Source: an uncultured Candidatus Binatia bacterium (GTDB taxonomy: Bacteria > Desulfobacterota > Binatia > Bin18). From it: DNA of 64,000 nucleotides. Below are positions 15,100 through 56,450 of this stretch, piece by piece (within the stretch, counting starts at the first letter, position 1; the number at the start of each line of letters is the position of its first letter). The stretch covers positions 1,226,818 to 1,290,817 of the forward strand of contig OZ244620.1 in the NCBI GenBank assembly GCA_965218395.1, given 5' to 3'. The notes beneath the pieces were generated by a model, which was not told the DNA's origin, did no database searches, and saw nothing but the letters and a program-made list of their open reading frames with translations. The position numbers were made by a program, and so were the translations under genes.

Positions 15100-16266
15100 T
15101 TATGAGGTGGTGGTGAGAGTCTCCATGACTTGCCGGGTATCAATATCGATCAGCTCAACGGTCGCCACCTCACTGCTGCCGGTCTTTTGCCCGGCATCGA
15201 TGAGCTGGCCGCGGAGTTTTTCTCTGAAACCGTCCCGGACAGGCTGAGGCATACCAGCCATGGGGAAATTGCGAAAGAAGACCTGGGCCTGGGTTGACGA
15301 CAGCCACTTAATCCGGACGATTTTGGGCGCCATCATTTCATGTGAGCGAAAGAGCGCTTCGACCGCTTGCTGAAACGCTGAGGCTGGGGTTGGCGACGCG
15401 GTCCGGGAGGGGGGCGTCCCGTTCGAGAATTGTTCCAGAAGCTGGTCGACGCGGGCCTGAATGGCGGTGTTGTCCGTCAGACTCCTGGCCTGCCGTAATG
15501 CGGCGAGCGCTTGTTCGGGCAGGCCCTTCTCCTGGTAGGCCACCCCCAGGTTAAAACGCGCCTGAAAGAAGTCCGGCCGCTCGGCCAGGACGGCCTGATA
15601 GGCAGCGATGGCCAGGTCGATCTGGCCGGTATAGAGGTACATGGTCCCCAGGTCGGTCGTCACGCCGACATCGTCCGGTTTCAGGGCTAAATAGCGCCGA
15701 TAATACTCGATCGCCTTGTGGTGTTCCTCAAGGTCGTAGTACACATTCCCCAGGCCGCGCAGCGCAGCCAGATCACCCGGTACAAGTGCAAACAGCTTGC
15801 GATAGGAAGCCAGGGCCGCACTGCGGTAGCTGGCATCGAGCTGCGACGCTCGGAACTGGACTTCGGCCAGGGTCCGCCACGCACTGGGGTCTTGCGGGGC
15901 GGCATTGGCCTGGGCAACCAGTTCCGCGATACGACTCTTGGCCTCCTCCGGCAGGGCAACCTGGGGATGATTCTGGGGCAGGGCCGAACCGCCCGTGCTG
16001 GCTTGCGTGGCAGGGGTCGGGGTCGGGGCGAAAGGCTCTGTCCGCAGGACAAAGAGCCAGAGTCCGATGCCGACGGCGAGGTAGCAGGACAAAACGATGA
16101 GGCCGGGCAGCGGCAGCCGCCGCGCGCCGGTCGCCGCTGGGGCGGCCGATTTTCGGGCTTTCTGCCCGCCGGCCTGGCCCCCGAGGGCTTCCCCACAATT
16201 CGTACAGAAATGTGCTTTGGGGATAGTCTCTGTCCCGCACTGTGGGCAAAAACGCGCTGTCGCCAT
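15100..16266 (-). CDS. Zinc-ribbon / TM / TPR protein
   Basis: FCPQCG..FCTNCG, one TM helix, LPQNHP, several TPR repeats. Confidence 0.8.
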   Translation of the reverse strand: MATARFCPQCGTETIPKAHFCTNCGEALGGQAGGQKARKSAAPAATGARRLPLPGLIVLSCYLAVGIGLWLFVLRTEPFAPTPTPATQASTGGSALPQNHPQVALPEEAKSRIAELVAQANAAPQDPSAWRTLAEVQFRASQLDASYRSAALASYRKLFALVPGDLAALRGLGNVYYDLEEHHKAIEYYRRYLALKPDDVGVTTDLGTMYLYTGQIDLAIAAYQAVLAERPDFFQARFNLGVAYQEKGLPEQALAALRQARSLTDNTAIQARVDQLLEQFSNGTPPSRTASPTPASAFQQAVEALFRSHEMMAPKIVRIKWLSSTQAQVFFRNFPMAGMPQPVRDGFREKLRGQLIDAGQKTGSSEVATVELIDIDTRQVMETLTTTS

Positions 16267-16326
16267 CCGGCCTCTCCCTCCGTGCACTCTACCTAACAAC
16301 AATACCCCAGGCGGGCTAGACCGGGC

Positions 16327-16334
16327 AGGCGGCG
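16327..16334 (+). repeat. Left 8-bp target-site duplication
   Basis: AGGCGGCG immediately before IRL. Confidence 0.85.
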
Positions 16335-16339
16335 GGTGC

Positions 16340-16414
16340 TGTCCTAATTCAGCGCGGGGTGTCCTAAGTTGGGGGAAGTTTGTCCTAATTTGAGCGGCGA
16401 ACTGTCCTAATTTG
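16340..16414 (+). repeat. Four direct copies of TGTCCTAA(T/G)T spaced 20, 21 and 22 bp
   Basis: Copies start at 16340, 16360, 16381, 16403; AACTGTCCTAATTTG (16400-16414) recurs exactly at 21500-21514. Confidence 0.9.
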
Positions 16415-16955
16415 TGGCGGGGTGGCGGGCGCTAATAACGTCCTCGATTATCCCGAATAAGACGTATTACATCCTGATCTCCTTCTGCGACACCGGCAAC
16501 AAAATTGGTATCCTTAGGAGGCAGAGTGGCATGTTCATGAAAATGTATCGCAATTAACAGTTAAGGGCTTGACATTAGCCCTCGTTCAATCTCGGTGACT
16601 TCAGCTCTTATGATACCATTACCTATCGCTCGCAGGCTCGGCGGGTCGGGGCAATATCGATCATCATAGCTAAAGGAGTGACAAGCATGAGCGACAACTC
16701 CAGCGACCGCCATTGATCGAACTGCGTCCTCCCATCGACGCACATGTCGCGCTCATCGAGACAAGATTTCAAGCTAGATTTCGTGACCCGTGTTTGTCGG
16801 CACCTCGTGCGAGATATTCTGACCACCATCCGTGTACCATCTTGCATGGTCGACTAAGTCGTTGGACAAAATCTCGCTGCTCCCCAAACCTCAGCGTTAG
16901 CGTAGATTGCTACACCATGCTAAAGTAACCCGGCCCGGCGATGGCACCCAGCGGG

Positions 16956-17052
16956 GCGACATCGAGAAGCAGTTGGCGATGACAGCGGCATCGAGAAGCA
17001 GTTGGCGATGACAGCGGCATCGAGAAGCAGTTGGCGATGACAGCGACATCAA
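16956..17052 (+). repeat. 29-bp tandem repeat (~3.3 copies) overlapping the ATPase start
   Basis: Unit GACAGCGGCATCGAGAAGCAGTTGGCGAT, no spacers. Confidence 0.92.
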
Positions 17053-18914
17053 GGGGATCGGATCAGCTTGACCGGCTTGAAGAGAGTATCCGAGCAGCCG
17101 ACAACCATCAACCATTTGAGACTCCGCTTGCGACCAGCGAACGAATCATCGCTCGGGTTACCGACGGAATCTACCGGGAGCCTTGGGCCGCATTCCGCGA
17201 ACTAGTCGCCAATGCATATGATGCTGACGCGTCATATGTGGTGATCGAAACCGGCCGACCCGACTTCCAACGCATGACAGTACGGGACGACGGTATTGGA
17301 ATGTCCCCCAGGACTCTCGCATACGTCTTAAAGAACATAGGCGGCAGCTCGAAGCGAACCGCTGCCGGAACTGAACTCAAGACCGTCAAAAGCGGCGCCC
17401 CCGACCTCAGCCCAGGCGGCCGTCCCCTCATCGGAAAAATCGGTATCGGGTTGTTTGCCATCGCGCAACTAACCCAACATTTTCAGATCATTACCAAGGC
17501 CGCCGGAGAAAACCACAGGCTATCCGCCACCGTCAAACTTCACACCCATGACGAGGAGAGAACTCAACAAGACGACGCGGACTATGTCGCTGGACGCGTG
17601 GTAATTGTGTCCGAGAAGGTTCCAGACAAGGAAATAGAGTCTCACGGTACATCTGTAGTCCTTTACCAGCTGCGCGATGAAGTTCGCCGAACGCTTCAAA
17701 GTGATAGGCTCTGGAACGCTACGCTAGTCGAGTCTGGGGGTGGTGAGTCCGTACGGAAACCGCCACAATTCCATATTGGTTACCTCGGGAAACCGCCGCA
17801 GGAACCTAATTTGCCGTGGCAAGACAAGGACAGCCCGAAAAATAAGTTCGATAGGTTCTTCGAAGCAGCAAGCAGCGCTTCCGGAAGAACAATCAAGTCG
17901 TCGAATCTGGACCATTTCGACGAGTATCTCCGGCTCGTATGGAAGTTAAGCCTCTCCCTTCCTCTAAACTACATTGGTGGTCATCCATTTGATCTGGATG
18001 GATCGAGTGGCATTCTATTTCTTGGCCTTCCAGACGAGAAGGGACAAGCCGACGAACTGCGCCTTGCACCCACAGAATCGCTCCGTGAACATTTGGGCCT
18101 TGGCATGAGCGGCAAAAATATTAACCATCCATTTTCCGTGACACTCGACGGAATCTCTCTACGACGCCCCATCAGCCTTCCCCGTGACCTGATGAAACCG
18201 TCTCGAGTCGGCGCACCGGTTTTGGTCGCCACGAAACAGGAAAATCCATTCTCTGAGAGCACTCTTGAGCGGGCAGGAGGTCATCTTTCGTTCGACGCAT
18301 ATCTCTACTGGAATAGTAAGATAATTCCAAAAGAAACAGCCGGGGTGCTAATTCGAATTCGTGGATCTAGTGGAACACTATTCGATTCCACATTTCTAAA
18401 CTATCAAGTGTCGGAACAAACCAGGCTGCGTCAGATAACCGCCGAAATGTTTATTCACGAGGGGCTCGACAGCGCTATTAACATCGACCGTGAGTCGTTC
18501 AACTACAGTCATCCTCACTTTTTGTATATCCAAAGATGGCTTCACCGGGCGCTTCGACTTCTTGTCAATCGTCTGAAGGCGCGGGCCGCTGCAGATCTCG
18601 CGCGCGCAAAATCCGAGCTTCGAAATAAGGCACTCAGCTACGCGGCAGAGGTCTGGAGTCGTCGGTTGGGGGATGAGGCTGATCCACCATTTTCAGATCC
18701 CACCGTGAGTACCCTTCCCGATGAGGTCGGCGGAGCGGATATCGACTGGCCTTCCGAAGGTATTCTGACTAGCCGGGGTAAACATGTTGGAACAGGCCGA
18801 ATTAGCGCGCTTGCCGCCATTCTGGAGGCGTACGGCGTTTTATCCAGCCTACCCGCTGAGGACCGGGCTCGGATCATCAGCGATATTCTCGGCATTCCCG
18901 AAACAGACGCATAA
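17037..18914 (+). CDS. MORC-like GHKL (HATPase_c/Hsp90-type) ATPase
   Basis: RELVANAYDADA, VRDDGIGM, IGKIGIGLFA, HGTSV; C-terminal S5-like half (..LDSAINIDRESFN); start may be TTG 17031. Confidence 0.85.
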   Translation: MTATSRGSDQLDRLEESIRAADNHQPFETPLATSERIIARVTDGIYREPWAAFRELVANAYDADASYVVIETGRPDFQRMTVRDDGIGMSPRTLAYVLKNIGGSSKRTAAGTELKTVKSGAPDLSPGGRPLIGKIGIGLFAIAQLTQHFQIITKAAGENHRLSATVKLHTHDEERTQQDDADYVAGRVVIVSEKVPDKEIESHGTSVVLYQLRDEVRRTLQSDRLWNATLVESGGGESVRKPPQFHIGYLGKPPQEPNLPWQDKDSPKNKFDRFFEAASSASGRTIKSSNLDHFDEYLRLVWKLSLSLPLNYIGGHPFDLDGSSGILFLGLPDEKGQADELRLAPTESLREHLGLGMSGKNINHPFSVTLDGISLRRPISLPRDLMKPSRVGAPVLVATKQENPFSESTLERAGGHLSFDAYLYWNSKIIPKETAGVLIRIRGSSGTLFDSTFLNYQVSEQTRLRQITAEMFIHEGLDSAINIDRESFNYSHPHFLYIQRWLHRALRLLVNRLKARAAADLARAKSELRNKALSYAAEVWSRRLGDEADPPFSDPTVSTLPDEVGGADIDWPSEGILTSRGKHVGTGRISALAAILEAYGVLSSLPAEDRARIISDILGIPETDA

Positions 18915-18916
18915 AT

Positions 18917-20110
18917 ATGGCGCCCGACGAACCCAATCGGCCGATTGCTGATGAGGTACTACCTGCACAGATCGACGACCTGGCGGTCCCGGTAGCACTA
19001 GACAAACTCTTCCCTTGGCATCGCCCGCGCAAACAATTGGTCCGGGAAAAACAGTGGATACACTTTTCTCGGCAGCTCATCGAAAGGGAAAAGGGTCAAC
19101 CGGGATTACGTGGCTCGCCGAATGCCAACCCAGAAGTCCGGTTCTTAACGCTTCCAGGAATTGACTACCTTGACGTGCGTCAGCTTGCCGACGTATGCCA
19201 AGATCTCGGCTGCTCCCTGACGAGTATAGGATTTCAATCGGGAGGCGAGCAGAATGCCTATGTCGCCCGGGCACAACTCCGAGAAAAGTCTCTGATTGAT
19301 GCTAAGCGCATAACTAGTCAATCACACACCTTCCCGAGAAGGCTCGAGGACATCGTATCTACAAGTAGCCAAGCGTATCAGGAGCTGAAAGAACGCGGGC
19401 CTTTTCACATTGTGAATATAGATGCGTGCGGGTCGATTGCCGCTCCACGGGCGGATCACCCCAACCGTTTGATCGAAGCCGTGTACAGGATTGTTGAGCT
19501 ACAACTTGAACTCATGACTGGCAGATGGTTGCTCTTTGTCACCACCGATGTCCGGCCAGGCTCTGTTGCCCGCGAGACTAGAGATAGGCTCTACAATACG
19601 ATATTCGAAAATGCGGACAAGAACGAAGAATTTCGGAACCGGGCGGTGCCTTTCCTGGCCCCCGGTGAGGTGGATATCAGGGCCGCTGTGAGGACGGCTT
19701 CCGCAAGGCCGGGAATCACGTCTCTCCAGCTCTTTTCGCTCGGCCTCGCCAAATGGTTCATCCACTTGGCACGTGATAAGAACTGGGACATGCAGACCCA
19801 CCATCCCTACTGCTACTCCACGATGCCTGGGAATAACAACACTCCGTCGATGACTTGCCTCGCGTTTGAATTTCTTCCACCGTCTCCAGGTCTTCAGGAT
19901 AGGTTTCAAGTTGCGCGAGCAGAACCTGCTCCTGCGTCGGGACGGGAGGATACGTCGGTACGTGCCGCTGACAAGATAAGAGACATGACCAATGCTGATA
20001 GTAAGATCGGCTCGGATGAACCACTCCGTAACCGTATGGTGGAAGACCTTCGGATGTTGCTCGCGGAAGTCGGCTACAGTTCTACACTGCTGGACGAAAT
20101 TGGAGCATAG
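18917..20110 (+). CDS. Uncharacterised protein, possibly SAM-methyltransferase-like fold
   Basis: FPWHRPRKQ.VREKQW, VRFLTLPGIDYLDVR, HIVNIDACGS; 2 nt after the ATPase stop. Recalls the PP_RS20740-type family (from memory, unverified). Confidence 0.55.
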   Translation: MAPDEPNRPIADEVLPAQIDDLAVPVALDKLFPWHRPRKQLVREKQWIHFSRQLIEREKGQPGLRGSPNANPEVRFLTLPGIDYLDVRQLADVCQDLGCSLTSIGFQSGGEQNAYVARAQLREKSLIDAKRITSQSHTFPRRLEDIVSTSSQAYQELKERGPFHIVNIDACGSIAAPRADHPNRLIEAVYRIVELQLELMTGRWLLFVTTDVRPGSVARETRDRLYNTIFENADKNEEFRNRAVPFLAPGEVDIRAAVRTASARPGITSLQLFSLGLAKWFIHLARDKNWDMQTHHPYCYSTMPGNNNTPSMTCLAFEFLPPSPGLQDRFQVARAEPAPASGREDTSVRAADKIRDMTNADSKIGSDEPLRNRMVEDLRMLLAEVGYSSTLLDEIGA

Positions 20111-21120
20111 GCCGACGCGGAATTTACTGCCGCGACTGTCCCGAGTGCCGAACTGATAGACTTTGCGATAGCTTCGGCTAGCGGCGGCGGAACCGCCTCG
20201 CTCACTTGGTCAATCTGCGCCGAAAGGGTCCCGTCCAGAACGTACTCCTTGGGAAACCCTTGAATCCTCATAGCCTCAAACACGCTCAGCCGCCGTTTGC
20301 CGTCAGGATGCACATGCACCTCCCGATGCCCGTAAGATGCCGTGATGCTCGGTTCGTCCCAGGCGAGTGTCTTAAAGCTACGGGTCGACGAATACCCCTC
20401 GACGAGGGAACCGTCAAAGAACCTGCGGGACTTGGGCGTCATGCACCAGTGATTCGGGTGAACCGGGATCGATTCCTTTTCGATACCTCGGGCAAAATAC
20501 ACCGGCGTAGGCAGACCCCGAATCGCATCTCCGACCGTCACACGCTCCTCGTTTCCGACAGGCGGAGACCACCGCTTCATATAAAATTTATCTTTCGGAA
20601 GCGCTAGCACAAACAGCCGATTGCGATGTTGCGGCACCGAGTGACAAGCCGCATTTACAAGGAAGTCACAAACATCGAAACCATTCTCTTCCAAGCGATT
20701 GATTTCCTGGGCGAGAAGACGGCTGTTCACCGCCCTCTTGAGGTCAGGAACGTTCTCCATCAGTATGAAGTCAAGTGGTCGGCGGTATTTATGGAACTGT
20801 AGTGCTATGGAAAAGAAACGTCGCACCAACTTGCTCCGTGGGTCGGCGACCGAGGCCGAACTGTTAGCCCGTGAAAAGCTCTGGCAGGGCGGGCCGCCGA
20901 TCACGCCGCTCGGAACGAATCTGGCTCCGTGGTCGCAGTCCATATCCGCCAACCGAATCGCTCGTAAGTCGGTGACATGGCCGCGTTGCTCCCCAGGTCG
21001 GTTGCGGTTCCAGGAAGCTATTGAATTTGCGCGAATATCGTACGCCAAGCCGATTTCGAAACCTGCCCGCTCGAAACCTAGATCCAACCCCCCACAACCC
21101 GAGTACAGGCTCAGTAACAC
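20074..21120 (-). CDS. DNA (cytosine-5)-methyltransferase
   Basis: SLYSGCGGLDLG, GGPPCQSFS (catalytic PC), MENV, QHRNRLF, RRLSVFEAMRIQGFP; GTG start after GGGAGG. Confidence 0.92.
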   Translation of the reverse strand: MLLSLYSGCGGLDLGFERAGFEIGLAYDIRANSIASWNRNRPGEQRGHVTDLRAIRLADMDCDHGARFVPSGVIGGPPCQSFSRANSSASVADPRSKLVRRFFSIALQFHKYRRPLDFILMENVPDLKRAVNSRLLAQEINRLEENGFDVCDFLVNAACHSVPQHRNRLFVLALPKDKFYMKRWSPPVGNEERVTVGDAIRGLPTPVYFARGIEKESIPVHPNHWCMTPKSRRFFDGSLVEGYSSTRSFKTLAWDEPSITASYGHREVHVHPDGKRRLSVFEAMRIQGFPKEYVLDGTLSAQIDQVSEAVPPPLAEAIAKSISSALGTVAAVNSASAYAPISSSSVEL

Positions 21121-21553
21121 AATGCATCGCCTCCCGCCTACAATAAGCCTAGCACAATTGACCAATGAGTGCTCCCGCTAAATCAGGGTGGTAGAGGGAA
21201 CCCCCACAAGCCGCTGAAGAGCAGAGCAGGATTGCCCACCAGAAGGGCCGCCGCCCTTGTAGTTGATTACAGAAATTGTCTTTACGTCTTTTTTCTCTCC
21301 CGAGTTTAGACAAGGCGTTTGTCACTCTTAGCTTGACATGTGACCGTCACTAACGGCTTGTTCGTGACTTTGATAGTCATGCCGTATGTGACTCCTTGGT
21401 CTATTTCCCATAAATTCCTGCTACCTTCTGCAGTAATCATACTCATAATCCCATGCTTGGCTCACCGTTGTACACGTCACTCATATGTCCCTCCCCACCA
21501 ACTGTCCTAATTTGAAAAAACAAATCGGAAGCTGTCCAAATTAGGACAGTACC

Positions 21554-21561
21554 AGGCGGCG
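21554..21561 (+). repeat. Right 8-bp target-site duplication
   Basis: AGGCGGCG immediately after IRR. Confidence 0.85.
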
Positions 21562-55067: not shown

Positions 55068-55082
55068 GGCCCTGTCCTAATT
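55068..55082 (+). repeat. Isolated copy of the IS6-like IR motif
   Basis: GGCCCTGTCCTAATT, 13/15 to the 16335 IR; no partner found. Confidence 0.55.
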
Positions 55083-55130
55083 AGGGTACTAATATGCTTG
55101 CGTCAGTAAATTCAAGATGCAGCCACACGC

Positions 55131-55387: not shown

Positions 55388-56450
55388 TAGAGCCTTCTGT
55401 GAATAGATTGAATCGGGGGGGGGTTCTTCAAGCCAGGGGGGCGGTGTGGCAAGCTGCGGGGAGCGGGAGGAAGGAGGCGAGCAGCAGATGGCCCGAGCGT
55501 ATTCTCAAGACTTGCGGGACCGAGTGATTGATGCCGTGACGCGGGAGGGGCTGAGCCGGCGGGCCGCGGCGCGGCGGTTTGGGGTCAGTAGCGCGTCCGC
55601 GATCAAGTGGCTCCAGCGCGTGCACAGGACCGGGGAGCGGGGGAGCGCGGGCACCGGGGGGCATCGGCCCTCGCAGGTGCAACCGGAGCGGGCGTGGTTA
55701 TTGGCGGTGATCGCGGTGCAGCCGGACATCACGCTGGCCGCGTTGGCGGCCCGGTTGTTGGAAGAGCGGGGGGTGAGGGCGGATACAGGGATGTTGTCCC
55801 GGTTCTTCACAGGGGCCGGGATCAGCTTTAAAAAAAGCCTCTCGGCCTCCGAGCAGGCGCGCCCGGACATCGCGCGGCGCCGGGCCCGCTGGCAGCGCGC
55901 GCAAGGCCAGCTTGATCCCCACCGGCTCGTGTTTATTGATGAGACGTGGGCCAAGACTAATATGACCCGCAGCCACGGCCGCTGCCCGCGTGGCCAGCGG
56001 TTGGCCGCCACGCGGCCCTATGGGCATTGGCAAACTCTGACCTTCGTGGCGGCCCTCCGGCGCGACCGCCTGACCGCCCCCTGTGTCTTCAACGGCCCGA
56101 TCAACGGTCCCCGCTTCCTCGCCTATGTGGAACAATGCCTCCTCCCCACGCTGACTGCTGGCGATATCGTCATCCTGGACAATCTCAGCAGCCACAAGAG
56201 CGCCGCCGTGCGGACCGCCATCGAGCGGGCGGGCGCCACGCTGCGCTTCCTGCCCCCCTATTCGCCCGATCTCAACCCGATTGAACAGGTCTTCGCCAAG
56301 CTCAAAGCCTCCCTCCGCCACGCGGCGGAACGCACGGTCGAGGCGACATGGCAACGGGTCGGAACCCTCCTTGATCGCTTCGGACCTGAGGAATGCCGCC
56401 ATTACTTCACCCATGCTGGCTATGCGTCAACCTAAAAACAGAAAGCACTA
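55388..56450 (+). mobile_element. IS630-family insertion sequence
   Basis: Ends CTAGAGCCTTCTGT / ACAGAAAGCACTAG (imperfect IR, TA-centred). Confidence 0.85.
55488..56435 (+). CDS. IS630 transposase, single reading frame
   Basis: MARAYSQDLR, VFIDET, ILDNLSSHK, LPPYSPDLNPIEQVF. Confidence 0.92.
   Translation: MARAYSQDLRDRVIDAVTREGLSRRAAARRFGVSSASAIKWLQRVHRTGERGSAGTGGHRPSQVQPERAWLLAVIAVQPDITLAALAARLLEERGVRADTGMLSRFFTGAGISFKKSLSASEQARPDIARRRARWQRAQGQLDPHRLVFIDETWAKTNMTRSHGRCPRGQRLAATRPYGHWQTLTFVAALRRDRLTAPCVFNGPINGPRFLAYVEQCLLPTLTAGDIVILDNLSSHKSAAVRTAIERAGATLRFLPPYSPDLNPIEQVFAKLKASLRHAAERTVEATWQRVGTLLDRFGPEECRHYFTHAGYAST

Follow-up and report, generated by a model that had tools for sequence, protein, structure and literature searches.

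What is the function of a bacterial gene cassette in which a MORC-like GHKL ATPase and a partner protein are encoded next to a Dcm-type C5 cytosine DNA methyltransferase? We addressed this question for a locus within a 64,000-nt stretch of DNA (hereafter, the window) from an uncultured Candidatus Binatia bacterium (GenBank assembly GCA_965218395.1, contig OZ244620.1, positions 1,226,818 to 1,290,817). An initial annotation, made from the sequence alone, had proposed the three genes as a candidate new anti-phage or restriction-modification (R-M)-like system. Our preferred interpretation, to which we give about an even chance of being correct, is that the trio is an R-M-like defence or addiction module in which Dcm marks self DNA, and the MORC-like clamp and the partner, here called X, act on unmarked DNA. 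The observed basis of this interpretation is the linkage of the three genes, their intact active sites, the folds of their products and the mobility of the cassette.

Layout and conservation of the cassette

The ATPase gene (P0001) runs on the forward strand from an ATG at 17037 to 18914 and encodes 625 aa. On a metagenome contig of identical sequence, the gene caller chose this ATG as the start; an alternative TTG lies 6 nt upstream, at 17031. The gene for X (P0002; 18917-20110, forward strand, 397 aa) follows after a gap of 2 nt. The Dcm gene (20074-21120, reverse strand, 348 aa), for which the gene caller assigned a GTG start, converges with the gene for X, the two sharing 37 nt at their 3ʹ ends (20074-20110); its open reading frame (ORF) remains open as far as a TTG at 21165. 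Rereading the ORFs reproduced the coordinates, gap and overlap of the initial annotation, and the motifs quoted there are present: RELVANAYDADA in the ATPase, FLTLPGIDYLD and HIVNIDACGS in X, and SLYSGCGG and QVSEAVPPPLA in Dcm. The trio occupies about 4.1 kb and is the sole recognisable cargo of a 5,218-bp mobile element at 16335-21552, described below. The G+C content of this region is 0.53-0.57, versus about 0.60-0.62 in the flanks.

Do the three genes belong together? A one-genome-per-species scan returned 146 relatives of X, and 80 loci were retained, in which ORFs were called and searched with the three window proteins. In essentially every one of these loci that is not cut by a contig end, the gene directly 5ʹ of X encodes an ATPase homologue, and the two usually overlap by 4 nt (ATGA type); in a set of 83 loci, a GHKL gene adjoins X wherever the contig allows. 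Wherever no contig end intervenes, a Dcm homologue is also a direct neighbour. About 30 loci have it in the convergent, overlapping arrangement seen in the window, and about 42 have it upstream on the same strand, forming a Dcm-ATPase-X operon. The cassette is found in Alpha-, Beta- and Gammaproteobacteria, Planctomycetota, Verrucomicrobiota, Acidobacteriota, Bacteroidota, Nitrospirota, Actinomycetota, one cyanobacterium and others. The linkage of the trio is far beyond chance. The three-component unit envisaged in the initial annotation thus recurs elsewhere, and the survey of 80 loci supports its being one conserved functional unit.

The components are not coupled to the same degree. Pairwise identities of X and the ATPase are strongly correlated (Spearman coefficient 0.68; 0.62 as a partial correlation controlling for Dcm), and the coupling of Dcm is looser, with partial correlations of 0.24 with X and 0.12 with the ATPase. 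Since X tracks Dcm slightly better than the ATPase does, X is perhaps the component that must match the methylase, of which this is only a weak hint. X also evolves fastest: mean pairwise identity is 30% for X, 45% for the ATPase and 41% for Dcm.

Which other genes accompany the cassette? When all neighbouring ORFs were clustered, only one recurrent family emerged, that of Vsr, an endonuclease for very-short-patch repair, which is present in 39 of the 83 loci, mostly directly 3ʹ of X in Dcm-GHKL-X-Vsr operons. A DruE-type (Druantia) helicase of about 1,650-1,860 aa lies beside the trio in four loci (L003, L043, L044 and L079), and in two Sphingomonas genomes such a helicase immediately precedes the ATPase gene. 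Some versions of the cassette thus seem to recruit a helicase, like the MORC operons of Iyer et al. Other neighbours include tyrosine and serine recombinases (integrases), IS66, IS21, IS481 and DDE transposases, a KAP NTPase and RadC. These neighbourhoods are typical of mobile or defence islands.

Predicted structures and active sites

The ATPase matches Pfam HATPase_c_3 (E = 6.7e-14; 52.5 bits against a cut-off of 25). The GHKL ATP-binding motifs ExxxN and DxGxG and the GxxGxG lid are all present, and E55, N59, D62, D84, G86, G88 and G133-K134-x-G136-x-G138 (numbered from the ATG) are invariant in 63 cassette-linked homologues. These are all the residues that the Bergerat fold requires to bind and hydrolyse ATP. 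In an AlphaFold model based on an alignment of the 63 homologues (predicted local distance difference test, pLDDT, 86.7), a Bergerat ATP-binding domain leads into an S5-type transducer, which is followed by a long helix (aa 493-544) and a small, helical domain at the C terminus. The top Foldseek matches of this model, with E of about 1e-10 and alignments spanning 520-615 columns, come from the ATPase-transducer modules of Hsp90, of archaeal Topo VI-B and of MORC2/MORC3 from human and mouse. The succession of a GHKL domain and an S5-fold transducer that characterises MORC and paraMORC proteins is therefore found in the ATPase by structural comparison. According to Iyer et al. 2008 (PMC2292703), MORC proteins sensu stricto are marked by a GhXhhpXXRhl signature in the S5 domain. 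We call the modelled protein MORC-like or paraMORC-type only, with no claim to MORC sensu stricto or to any one paraMORC family. The likeness to eukaryotic MORC2/MORC3, its best structural matches, extends to a functional tie to DNA methylation on both sides; however, identity is 12-15%, and the ATPase has neither the CW nor the coiled-coil chromatin reader domains.

A near-invariant block of the ATPase, at about residues 456-514 (YQVSEQTRLRQITAE...NIDRESFN..HPH...W.H), sits in the transducer region. The HxH-type motif H492-P-H494 is invariant in the C-terminal region, and paraMORC5 has an HxH-type motif as well, according to PMC2292703. No nuclease family or fold was found in the ATPase by searches of Pfam, NCBIfam, PADLOC and PHROGs, by a profile search of PDB sequences or by Foldseek, in line with the initial description of a GHKL ATPase that has no obvious nuclease domain. 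Its only matches to restriction enzymes are weak and confined to the GHKL part: PADLOC 'REase_II' models match the N-terminal domain, and NF050001 (BbrUII/HgiDII) matches residues 53-221 with 58.4 bits. We rejected membership of the BbrUII/HgiDII family on this basis, as NF050001 requires 550 bits. In some loci the ATPase carries a long N-terminal extension (up to 957 aa). These extensions are probably over-called ORFs, since no extra domain was detected in them on checking.

The start of the ATPase gene has an unusual sequence context. A 29-bp tandem repeat of 3.3 copies (16956-17050, forward strand) spans the ribosome-binding region and the ATG, and a cassette that is 91% identical (L087) has a single copy of the 29-bp unit. 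Each additional copy adds a 10-codon upstream ORF, MTAASRSSWR, whose TGA overlaps the next ATG (ATGA), so that the repeats form a chain of coupled mini-ORFs ahead of the real ATPase start. The array may be an expression dial or a product of slippage.

X belongs to a family that is already catalogued, but under a locus-tag name only. It matches the NCBIfam equivalog NF047698, 'PP_RS20740 family', with 277.1 bits (cut-off 200; E = 2.7e-82) over residues 12-389, and all its close homologues bear a precomputed assignment to Pfam PF28273, which has the same family name. The family comprises 523 clusters at 50% identity (E <= 0.001). X has no match in the Pfam copy that we searched, in PADLOC or in PHROGs, and a profile search of PDB sequences returned none. 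The type gene is known from a V338F mutation that was selected under furfural stress in Pseudomonas putida, where the protein is called hypothetical (PMC9630843).

What, then, does X look like? A model based on 101 diverse family members (pLDDT 93.3; predicted template modelling score, pTM, 0.91) has a seven-stranded, Rossmann-like class-I methyltransferase fold. Foldseek with this model of 18917-20110 returned methyltransferase folds only, and these weakly (E from 7e-5 in PDB and 1e-5 among viral structures, up to 1e-3), with a probability of about 1.0 and a template modelling (TM) score of about 0.3. The matches comprise histamine and nicotinamide N-methyltransferases, cap guanine-N7 methyltransferases, M.BseCI, a Type I M subunit (StySJI M) and aTrm4. 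In place of the glycine-rich GxGxG, the motif I loop after beta1 reads L-P80-G81-x-D83-x-x-D86; beta2 ends in G105-F106, followed by variable residues, and the conserved acidic residue that binds the ribose of S-adenosylmethionine (SAM) is absent. X thus shows neither of the sequence features by which class-I SAM-dependent enzymes are recognised, GxGxG and an acidic beta2 end. The initial annotation had seen segments reminiscent of SAM-binding motifs in X: the resemblance holds for the fold, but not for the motifs, which are non-canonical.

Other positions are conserved in X: N167-x-D169-x-C171 after beta4, T209-T210 at the end of beta5, Q196, N232, F239, K279, Y300, and a strongly basic N-terminal motif, W34-H35-x-P-R-K39-Q-x-V-R43-x-x-Q-W. 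As far as conservation tells, the pocket that contains D83, D86, N167, D169, C171, T209, K279 and H35 differs from a canonical SAM site, and it may be a new type of site for catalysis or base recognition. We read X as a methyltransferase-derived scaffold in which the polar pocket has been remodelled. No nuclease fold or motif was detected in X by Pfam, NCBIfam, PADLOC, PHROGs, the profile search of PDB sequences or Foldseek against PDB and viral structures.

An alternative is that X is itself an active SAM-dependent methyltransferase. The cassette would then encode two modifying enzymes, with the ATPase loading or gating X, and X would write either a second mark that protects or, on DNA that lacks 5-methylcytosine (5mC), one that harms, amounting to 'restriction by modification'. 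The class-I fold of X is confident; its matches include cap-N7, DNA adenine (M.BseCI, StySJI M) and RNA m5C (aTrm4) enzymes; and the conserved Cys171 just past beta4 occupies the site of the motif IV cysteine of C5-pyrimidine methyltransferases. On the other hand, motif I is LPGxDxLD rather than GxGxG, the acidic residue at the end of beta2 is replaced (G105-F106), the TM score of about 0.3 is low, and the profile search found no methyltransferase in PDB. Profile comparisons showed no relation of X to the ATPase or, by hhalign, to the profile of the cassette Dcm. A plain second methylase is somewhat disfavoured because canonical SAM-binding features are not conserved in X, and we regard this explanation as unlikely.

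A second alternative is suggested by a cassette described by Bellieny-Rabelo et al. 2021 (PMC8011034), in which HEF_HK proteins and Response_reg_2 proteins have been proposed to form a cytoplasmic two-component-like signalling pair that regulates the methylase. The operon logic is the same, with a C5 methylase upstream, a GHKL protein, a partner and Vsr downstream. That cassette also shares with ours an N-terminal HATPase_c_3 protein, an obligate unknown partner, strict pairwise linkage (91.6% there) and similar taxa. Furthermore, D83/D86, D169, T209 and K279 of X resemble the D-D/D/T/K pattern of the 'RR-like' proteins in that study (PMC8011034). Yet the proteins themselves differ. Whereas the ATPase of the published cassette has a second, kinase-type HATPase_c domain, none of the 63 ATPases examined here matches HEF_HK or a second HATPase_c kinase domain, and none of the 101 X proteins matches Response_reg_2. 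The ATPase has a MORC/Topo VI-B/Hsp90 fold with an S5 transducer, not that of a histidine kinase, and X has a seven-stranded methyltransferase fold, not the (beta-alpha)5 fold of a receiver; the published partner is receiver-like. The two cassettes are not identical: at E <= 0.01, PF19191/PF19192 match 0/63 ATPases and 0/101 X. It is highly improbable that the ATPase and X described here are a signalling pair.

The third protein is, by its sequence, a regular C5 enzyme. Dcm matches PF00145 (E = 1.6e-44; 153 bits, cut-off 22) and TIGR00675 (127.7 bits, cut-off 100.65), and its closest solved structure is M.HaeIII (E = 3e-59). Motifs I (FxGxGG), IV (GGPPCQSFS), VI (ENV), VIII (QxRxR) and IX are conserved among 75 cassette-linked homologues, in all of which PCQ, ENV and QxRxR are invariant. 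We infer from these intact catalytic motifs that the enzyme is active. Motif X reads Q(V/I)(S/T)(N/E)AVPPPLA in the same homologues, with S/T-N/E in place of G-N. The atypical motifs pointed out in the initial annotation are therefore real, but they are a trait of this Dcm clade rather than the sign of an odd enzyme.

Restriction-modification and competing explanations

How could the three proteins act together? We propose that Dcm would place 5mC on host DNA as a 'self' mark, as its catalytic motifs suggest. The ATPase and the translationally coupled X may work as one complex, given their strict adjacency and co-evolution, and this complex would be the 'restriction' arm directed against unmarked DNA. 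If the ATPase behaves like MORC, MutL and Topo VI-B, it would dimerise into a clamp on DNA, driven by ATP. X would face the DNA, read the target in its unmethylated state and either provide the effector chemistry or license it, and the outcome could be DNA cleavage or a non-nucleolytic block. The module was brought into this genome by the 5.2-kb transposase-less IS1-type element. Complex formation, discrimination of methylation states and the nature of the damage are steps that we infer.

We favour an R-M-like selfish or defence module because of the strict linkage of the trio, its compact overlapping layout, its sporadic distribution across phyla and its carriage on mobile DNA. There is precedent for both the enzyme type and the operon. 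GHKL proteins can be true restriction enzymes, since R.HgiDII, a genuine restriction enzyme of Type II, combines a GHKL domain at its N terminus with a C-terminal domain of no known fold (PMC2441816). An R-M role was predicted for paraMORC-Dcm-Vsr operons by Iyer et al. 2008 (PMC2292703).

Several observations weigh against the R-M-like interpretation. First, searches with Pfam, NCBIfam, PADLOC, PHROGs and Foldseek turned up neither a nuclease fold nor a nuclease motif in either the ATPase or X, in line with the initial annotation, in which no restriction endonuclease was recognisable. Specifically, these searches found in neither protein one of the nuclease types by which Type II R-M systems are recognised (PD-(D/E)xK, HNH, GIY-YIG, PLD or half-pipe). 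Second, no phage or plasmid phenotype is on record for any member of the cassette, and the furfural-stress point mutation in P. putida is the sole experimental mention of the X family (PMC9630843). Third, X has no match in collections of plasmids or phages. Fourth, several Dcm lineages pair with the same GHKL-X (E from 1e-17 to 1e-180; identities 25-75%). This swapping is awkward if GHKL-X has to recognise the same sequence as Dcm. Lastly, the presence of Vsr beside about half of the cassettes also fits a role in repair.

The pattern of gene decay is in the direction expected if the restriction arm were toxic. In five loci (L016, L026, L018, L046 and L047), the ATPase or X is broken and Dcm is intact; the reverse was found in none. 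The ATPase gene is interrupted by insertions of 1.2-2.2 kb in L016 and L026, and frameshifts or stops in the ATPase or X account for the other three. This asymmetry of 5:0 is not significant (p about 0.24).

If no nuclease is involved, how might unmarked DNA be attacked? One possibility is a nuclease-free form of immunity or addiction, in which a MORC-type clamp and a methyltransferase-fold reader would inactivate DNA lacking 5mC by entrapment, by compaction or by a new chemistry in the Asp/Asn/Cys pocket of X. Such a module would be the prokaryotic root of the link between MORC proteins and DNA methylation in eukaryotic genome defence. We consider this a long shot. If true, bacteria would widely possess an immunity or addiction system whose 'restriction' needs no nuclease.

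The association with Vsr raises the question of whether the ATPase and X are instead accessories to repair, i.e. a MutL-like ATPase and its partner that aid Vsr on the T:G mismatches that arise by deamination of 5mC made by Dcm. Vsr is the only other recurrent gene of the cassette, usually directly after X. E. coli MutL stimulates Vsr. This effect is also discussed in PMC2292703. An accessory of this kind could work without sequence specificity, and this would account for the exchange of Dcm lineages. However, about half of the cassettes are without Vsr, including the self-sufficient 5.2-kb element described here, and a hidden Markov model (HMM) built from cassette-linked Vsr genes of other loci found none in the window, as the initial annotation had stated. 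Moreover, ordinary Dcm-Vsr pairs function without such accessories, and the strict GHKL-X-Dcm linkage and the mobile and defence-island contexts are a better match to selfish R-M logic. Hence, a function in repair seems improbable.

The same contexts bear on the possibility of an epigenetic or chromosome-organising module, in which MORC-like compaction or silencing would be guided by 5mC for host regulation, with no role in conflict. Eukaryotic MORCs do act in methylation-linked silencing, and the absence of a nuclease is in keeping with this function. Against it, the cassette is sporadic across phyla, it is found on transposons and islands beside integrases and defence genes, and the insertion described here is recent and lacking from close relatives. 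We think a purely regulatory role very unlikely.

How new is the R-M-like module that we favour? The initial annotation had noted that MORC/MutL-like ATPases occur in R-M neighbourhoods, and this agrees with the operon predictions of Iyer et al. (PMC2292703). Its 'candidate new system' is not wholly new: operons of GHKL (paraMORC) and Dcm genes, with or without Vsr, were predicted as R-M systems in 2008 (PMC2292703), an analogous Dcm-GHKL-partner-Vsr cassette was described in 2021 (PMC8011034), and the X family had already been named in NCBIfam and Pfam. The paraMORC R-M operons of PMC2292703 resemble the trio in that a GHKL-S5 ATPase is linked to a cytosine methylase, often with Vsr, in a laterally mobile arrangement, and ATP-driven manipulation of DNA within an R-M system is predicted there as well. 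They differ in that they usually include a helicase and/or a recognisable nuclease, and a partner family with a methyltransferase fold is not described in the text that we read.

R.HgiDII and R.BbrUII (NF050001; Orlowski & Bujnicki 2008, PMC2441816) resemble the trio in their N-terminal GHKL domain, in being paired with a cognate C5 methylase and in lacking any known nuclease fold. They are single-polypeptide enzymes without a separate partner, and X is dissimilar to their C-terminal domain. In PADLOC-DB v2.0.0, which includes Druantia II, DISARM and MADS, no system was matched by all components of the trio. X had no PADLOC match, the matches of the ATPase were the weak N-terminal REase_II ones, and Dcm matched the generic DruM, DrmMII and MTase_II models; no DruE, DruF or DruG adjoins the trio in the window. 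The trio is thus absent from the models of PADLOC v2, the defence catalogue that we searched, and the literature that we searched yielded no publication on this three-gene system with its methyltransferase-fold partner or on experiments with it. A search of plasmid and phage collections with the ATPase found only a two-gene unit of the P2-like Yersinia phage P37 (L209; NC_070907.1, 133-3178), in which Dcm and a 670-aa GHKL protein are encoded at the genome end. The annotation of that record shows an X-like partner at neither end. The P37 unit is probably a different, single-polypeptide GHKL type of restriction.

An R-M role was predicted for prokaryotic MORC-like ATPases 18 years ago, and their molecular and biochemical roles are still unclear (PMC8011034; bioRxiv 10.64898/2026.09.30.754977). 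The cassette offers a clean experimental entry point, because it is minimal, very widespread (>500 partner clusters at 50% identity) and without a known nuclease. It opens the questions of how DNA methylation is read by a MORC-type clamp, whether restriction can proceed without a classical nuclease, and what role the PP_RS20740 fold plays.

The mobile element carrying the cassette

How did the trio reach this genome? The copy in the window illustrates how the module spreads, as the self-sufficient cargo of a transposase-less IS1-type element whose insertion is precise and datable. The element (16335-21552; 5,218 bp) is flanked by 9-bp target-site duplications, CAGGCGGCG, at 16326-16334 on the left and 21553-21561 on the right, identified by reading the sequence and by alignment to the empty site. 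In two relatives (L085 and L086, with neighbour-gene products 91% and 84% identical), the flanking genes, one encoding a TPR protein and the other a homologue of P0004, are divergent and 129 bp apart. When the flanks of the window are joined with one copy of CAGGCGGCG, they align to both relatives over 273 nt without a gap; joining them with both copies or with neither requires gaps. The gapless one-copy alignment defines the insert as 16335-21552 with a 9-bp target duplication. Judged from the empty sites of its close relatives, the insertion is recent.

The ends of the element are inverted repeats, GGTGCTGTCCTAATT versus GTACTGTCCTAATT on the opposite strand. At the left end (16335-16414, forward strand), the terminal inverted repeat GGTGCTGTCCTAATT precedes four direct copies of (C)TGTCCTAA(T/G)TT that recur at intervals of 20-22 bp; the TGTCCTAA copies are presumed transposase-binding sites. 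The right end (21500-21552, reverse strand) has one more copy of the motif and a palindromic terminal copy, CTGTCCAAATTAGGACAGTAC. Since no transposase is encoded in the element and no homologue of the transposase of its relatives is found in the window, we regard it as a non-autonomous cassette carrier of IS1-family type. Small ORFs in its 600-bp and 330-bp non-coding arms yielded nothing convincing.

The assignment to the IS1 family comes from related elements. At least 120 metagenome contigs from soil and peat carry the same three-copy array, with the consensus GGTRSTGTCCTAATTCC...TGTCCTAATTTG...TGTCCTAATTT, at their ends, and the terminal GGTRSTGTCCTAATTCC is conserved. Three complete elements (L099, L138 and L163) have the same two types of end, with a matching right-end layout and 8-9-bp duplications. 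Two of them, L138 and L163, contain a transposase; that of L138 matches DDE_Tnp_IS1 (33.1 bits; Pfam cut-off 24.1), and the L163 copy is 74% identical to it. Inverted repeats, a 9-bp duplication, an empty site and a transposase in complete relatives together identify a non-autonomous element of the IS1 family. An IS6-like reading was rejected in view of the DDE_Tnp_IS1 transposase of the complete relatives. The first right-end sequence pattern that we ran against metagenomes gave no match.

Like other mobile insertion cassettes, i.e. transposase-less derivatives of insertion sequences, here of the IS1 family, the element has inverted repeats of the GGTG.../GTR... type, a 9-bp duplication and no transposase. 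Unlike classical IS1, its ends hold arrays of three to four subterminal repeats, and its cargo is a complete R-M-like module. The L087 cassette, which is 91% identical at the DNA level, shares only 17014-21282 with the window and has entirely different flanks. The three genes were therefore captured between foreign ends.

The genes on either side of the element encode a zinc-ribbon/TPR protein (15100-16302) and a conserved 424-aa protein of unknown function (P0004; 21623-22897). Because these genes are divergent neighbours in the relatives, the insertion point lies in the 129-bp promoter region that they share, and the insertion may affect the expression of both.

A large family of IS1-type elements (L089-L168; at least 120 contigs) with heterogeneous interior genes is defined by the end array, in which GGTRSTGTCCTAATTCC is joined by two or three further copies of TGTCCTAATT at a spacing of about 21 bp. 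Members of the family range from forms of 0.5-1.2 kb that resemble miniature inverted-repeat transposable elements, through autonomous forms of 3.5 kb with a DDE_Tnp_IS1 transposase and an unknown gene of 250-300 aa, to carriers of cargo. Elsewhere in the window, a further copy of the motif (55072-55084) lies inside the palindrome-like sequence GTCCTAATTAGGGTAC, 370 bp upstream of an ORF for an IS630/DDE_3-like transposase (55446-56435).

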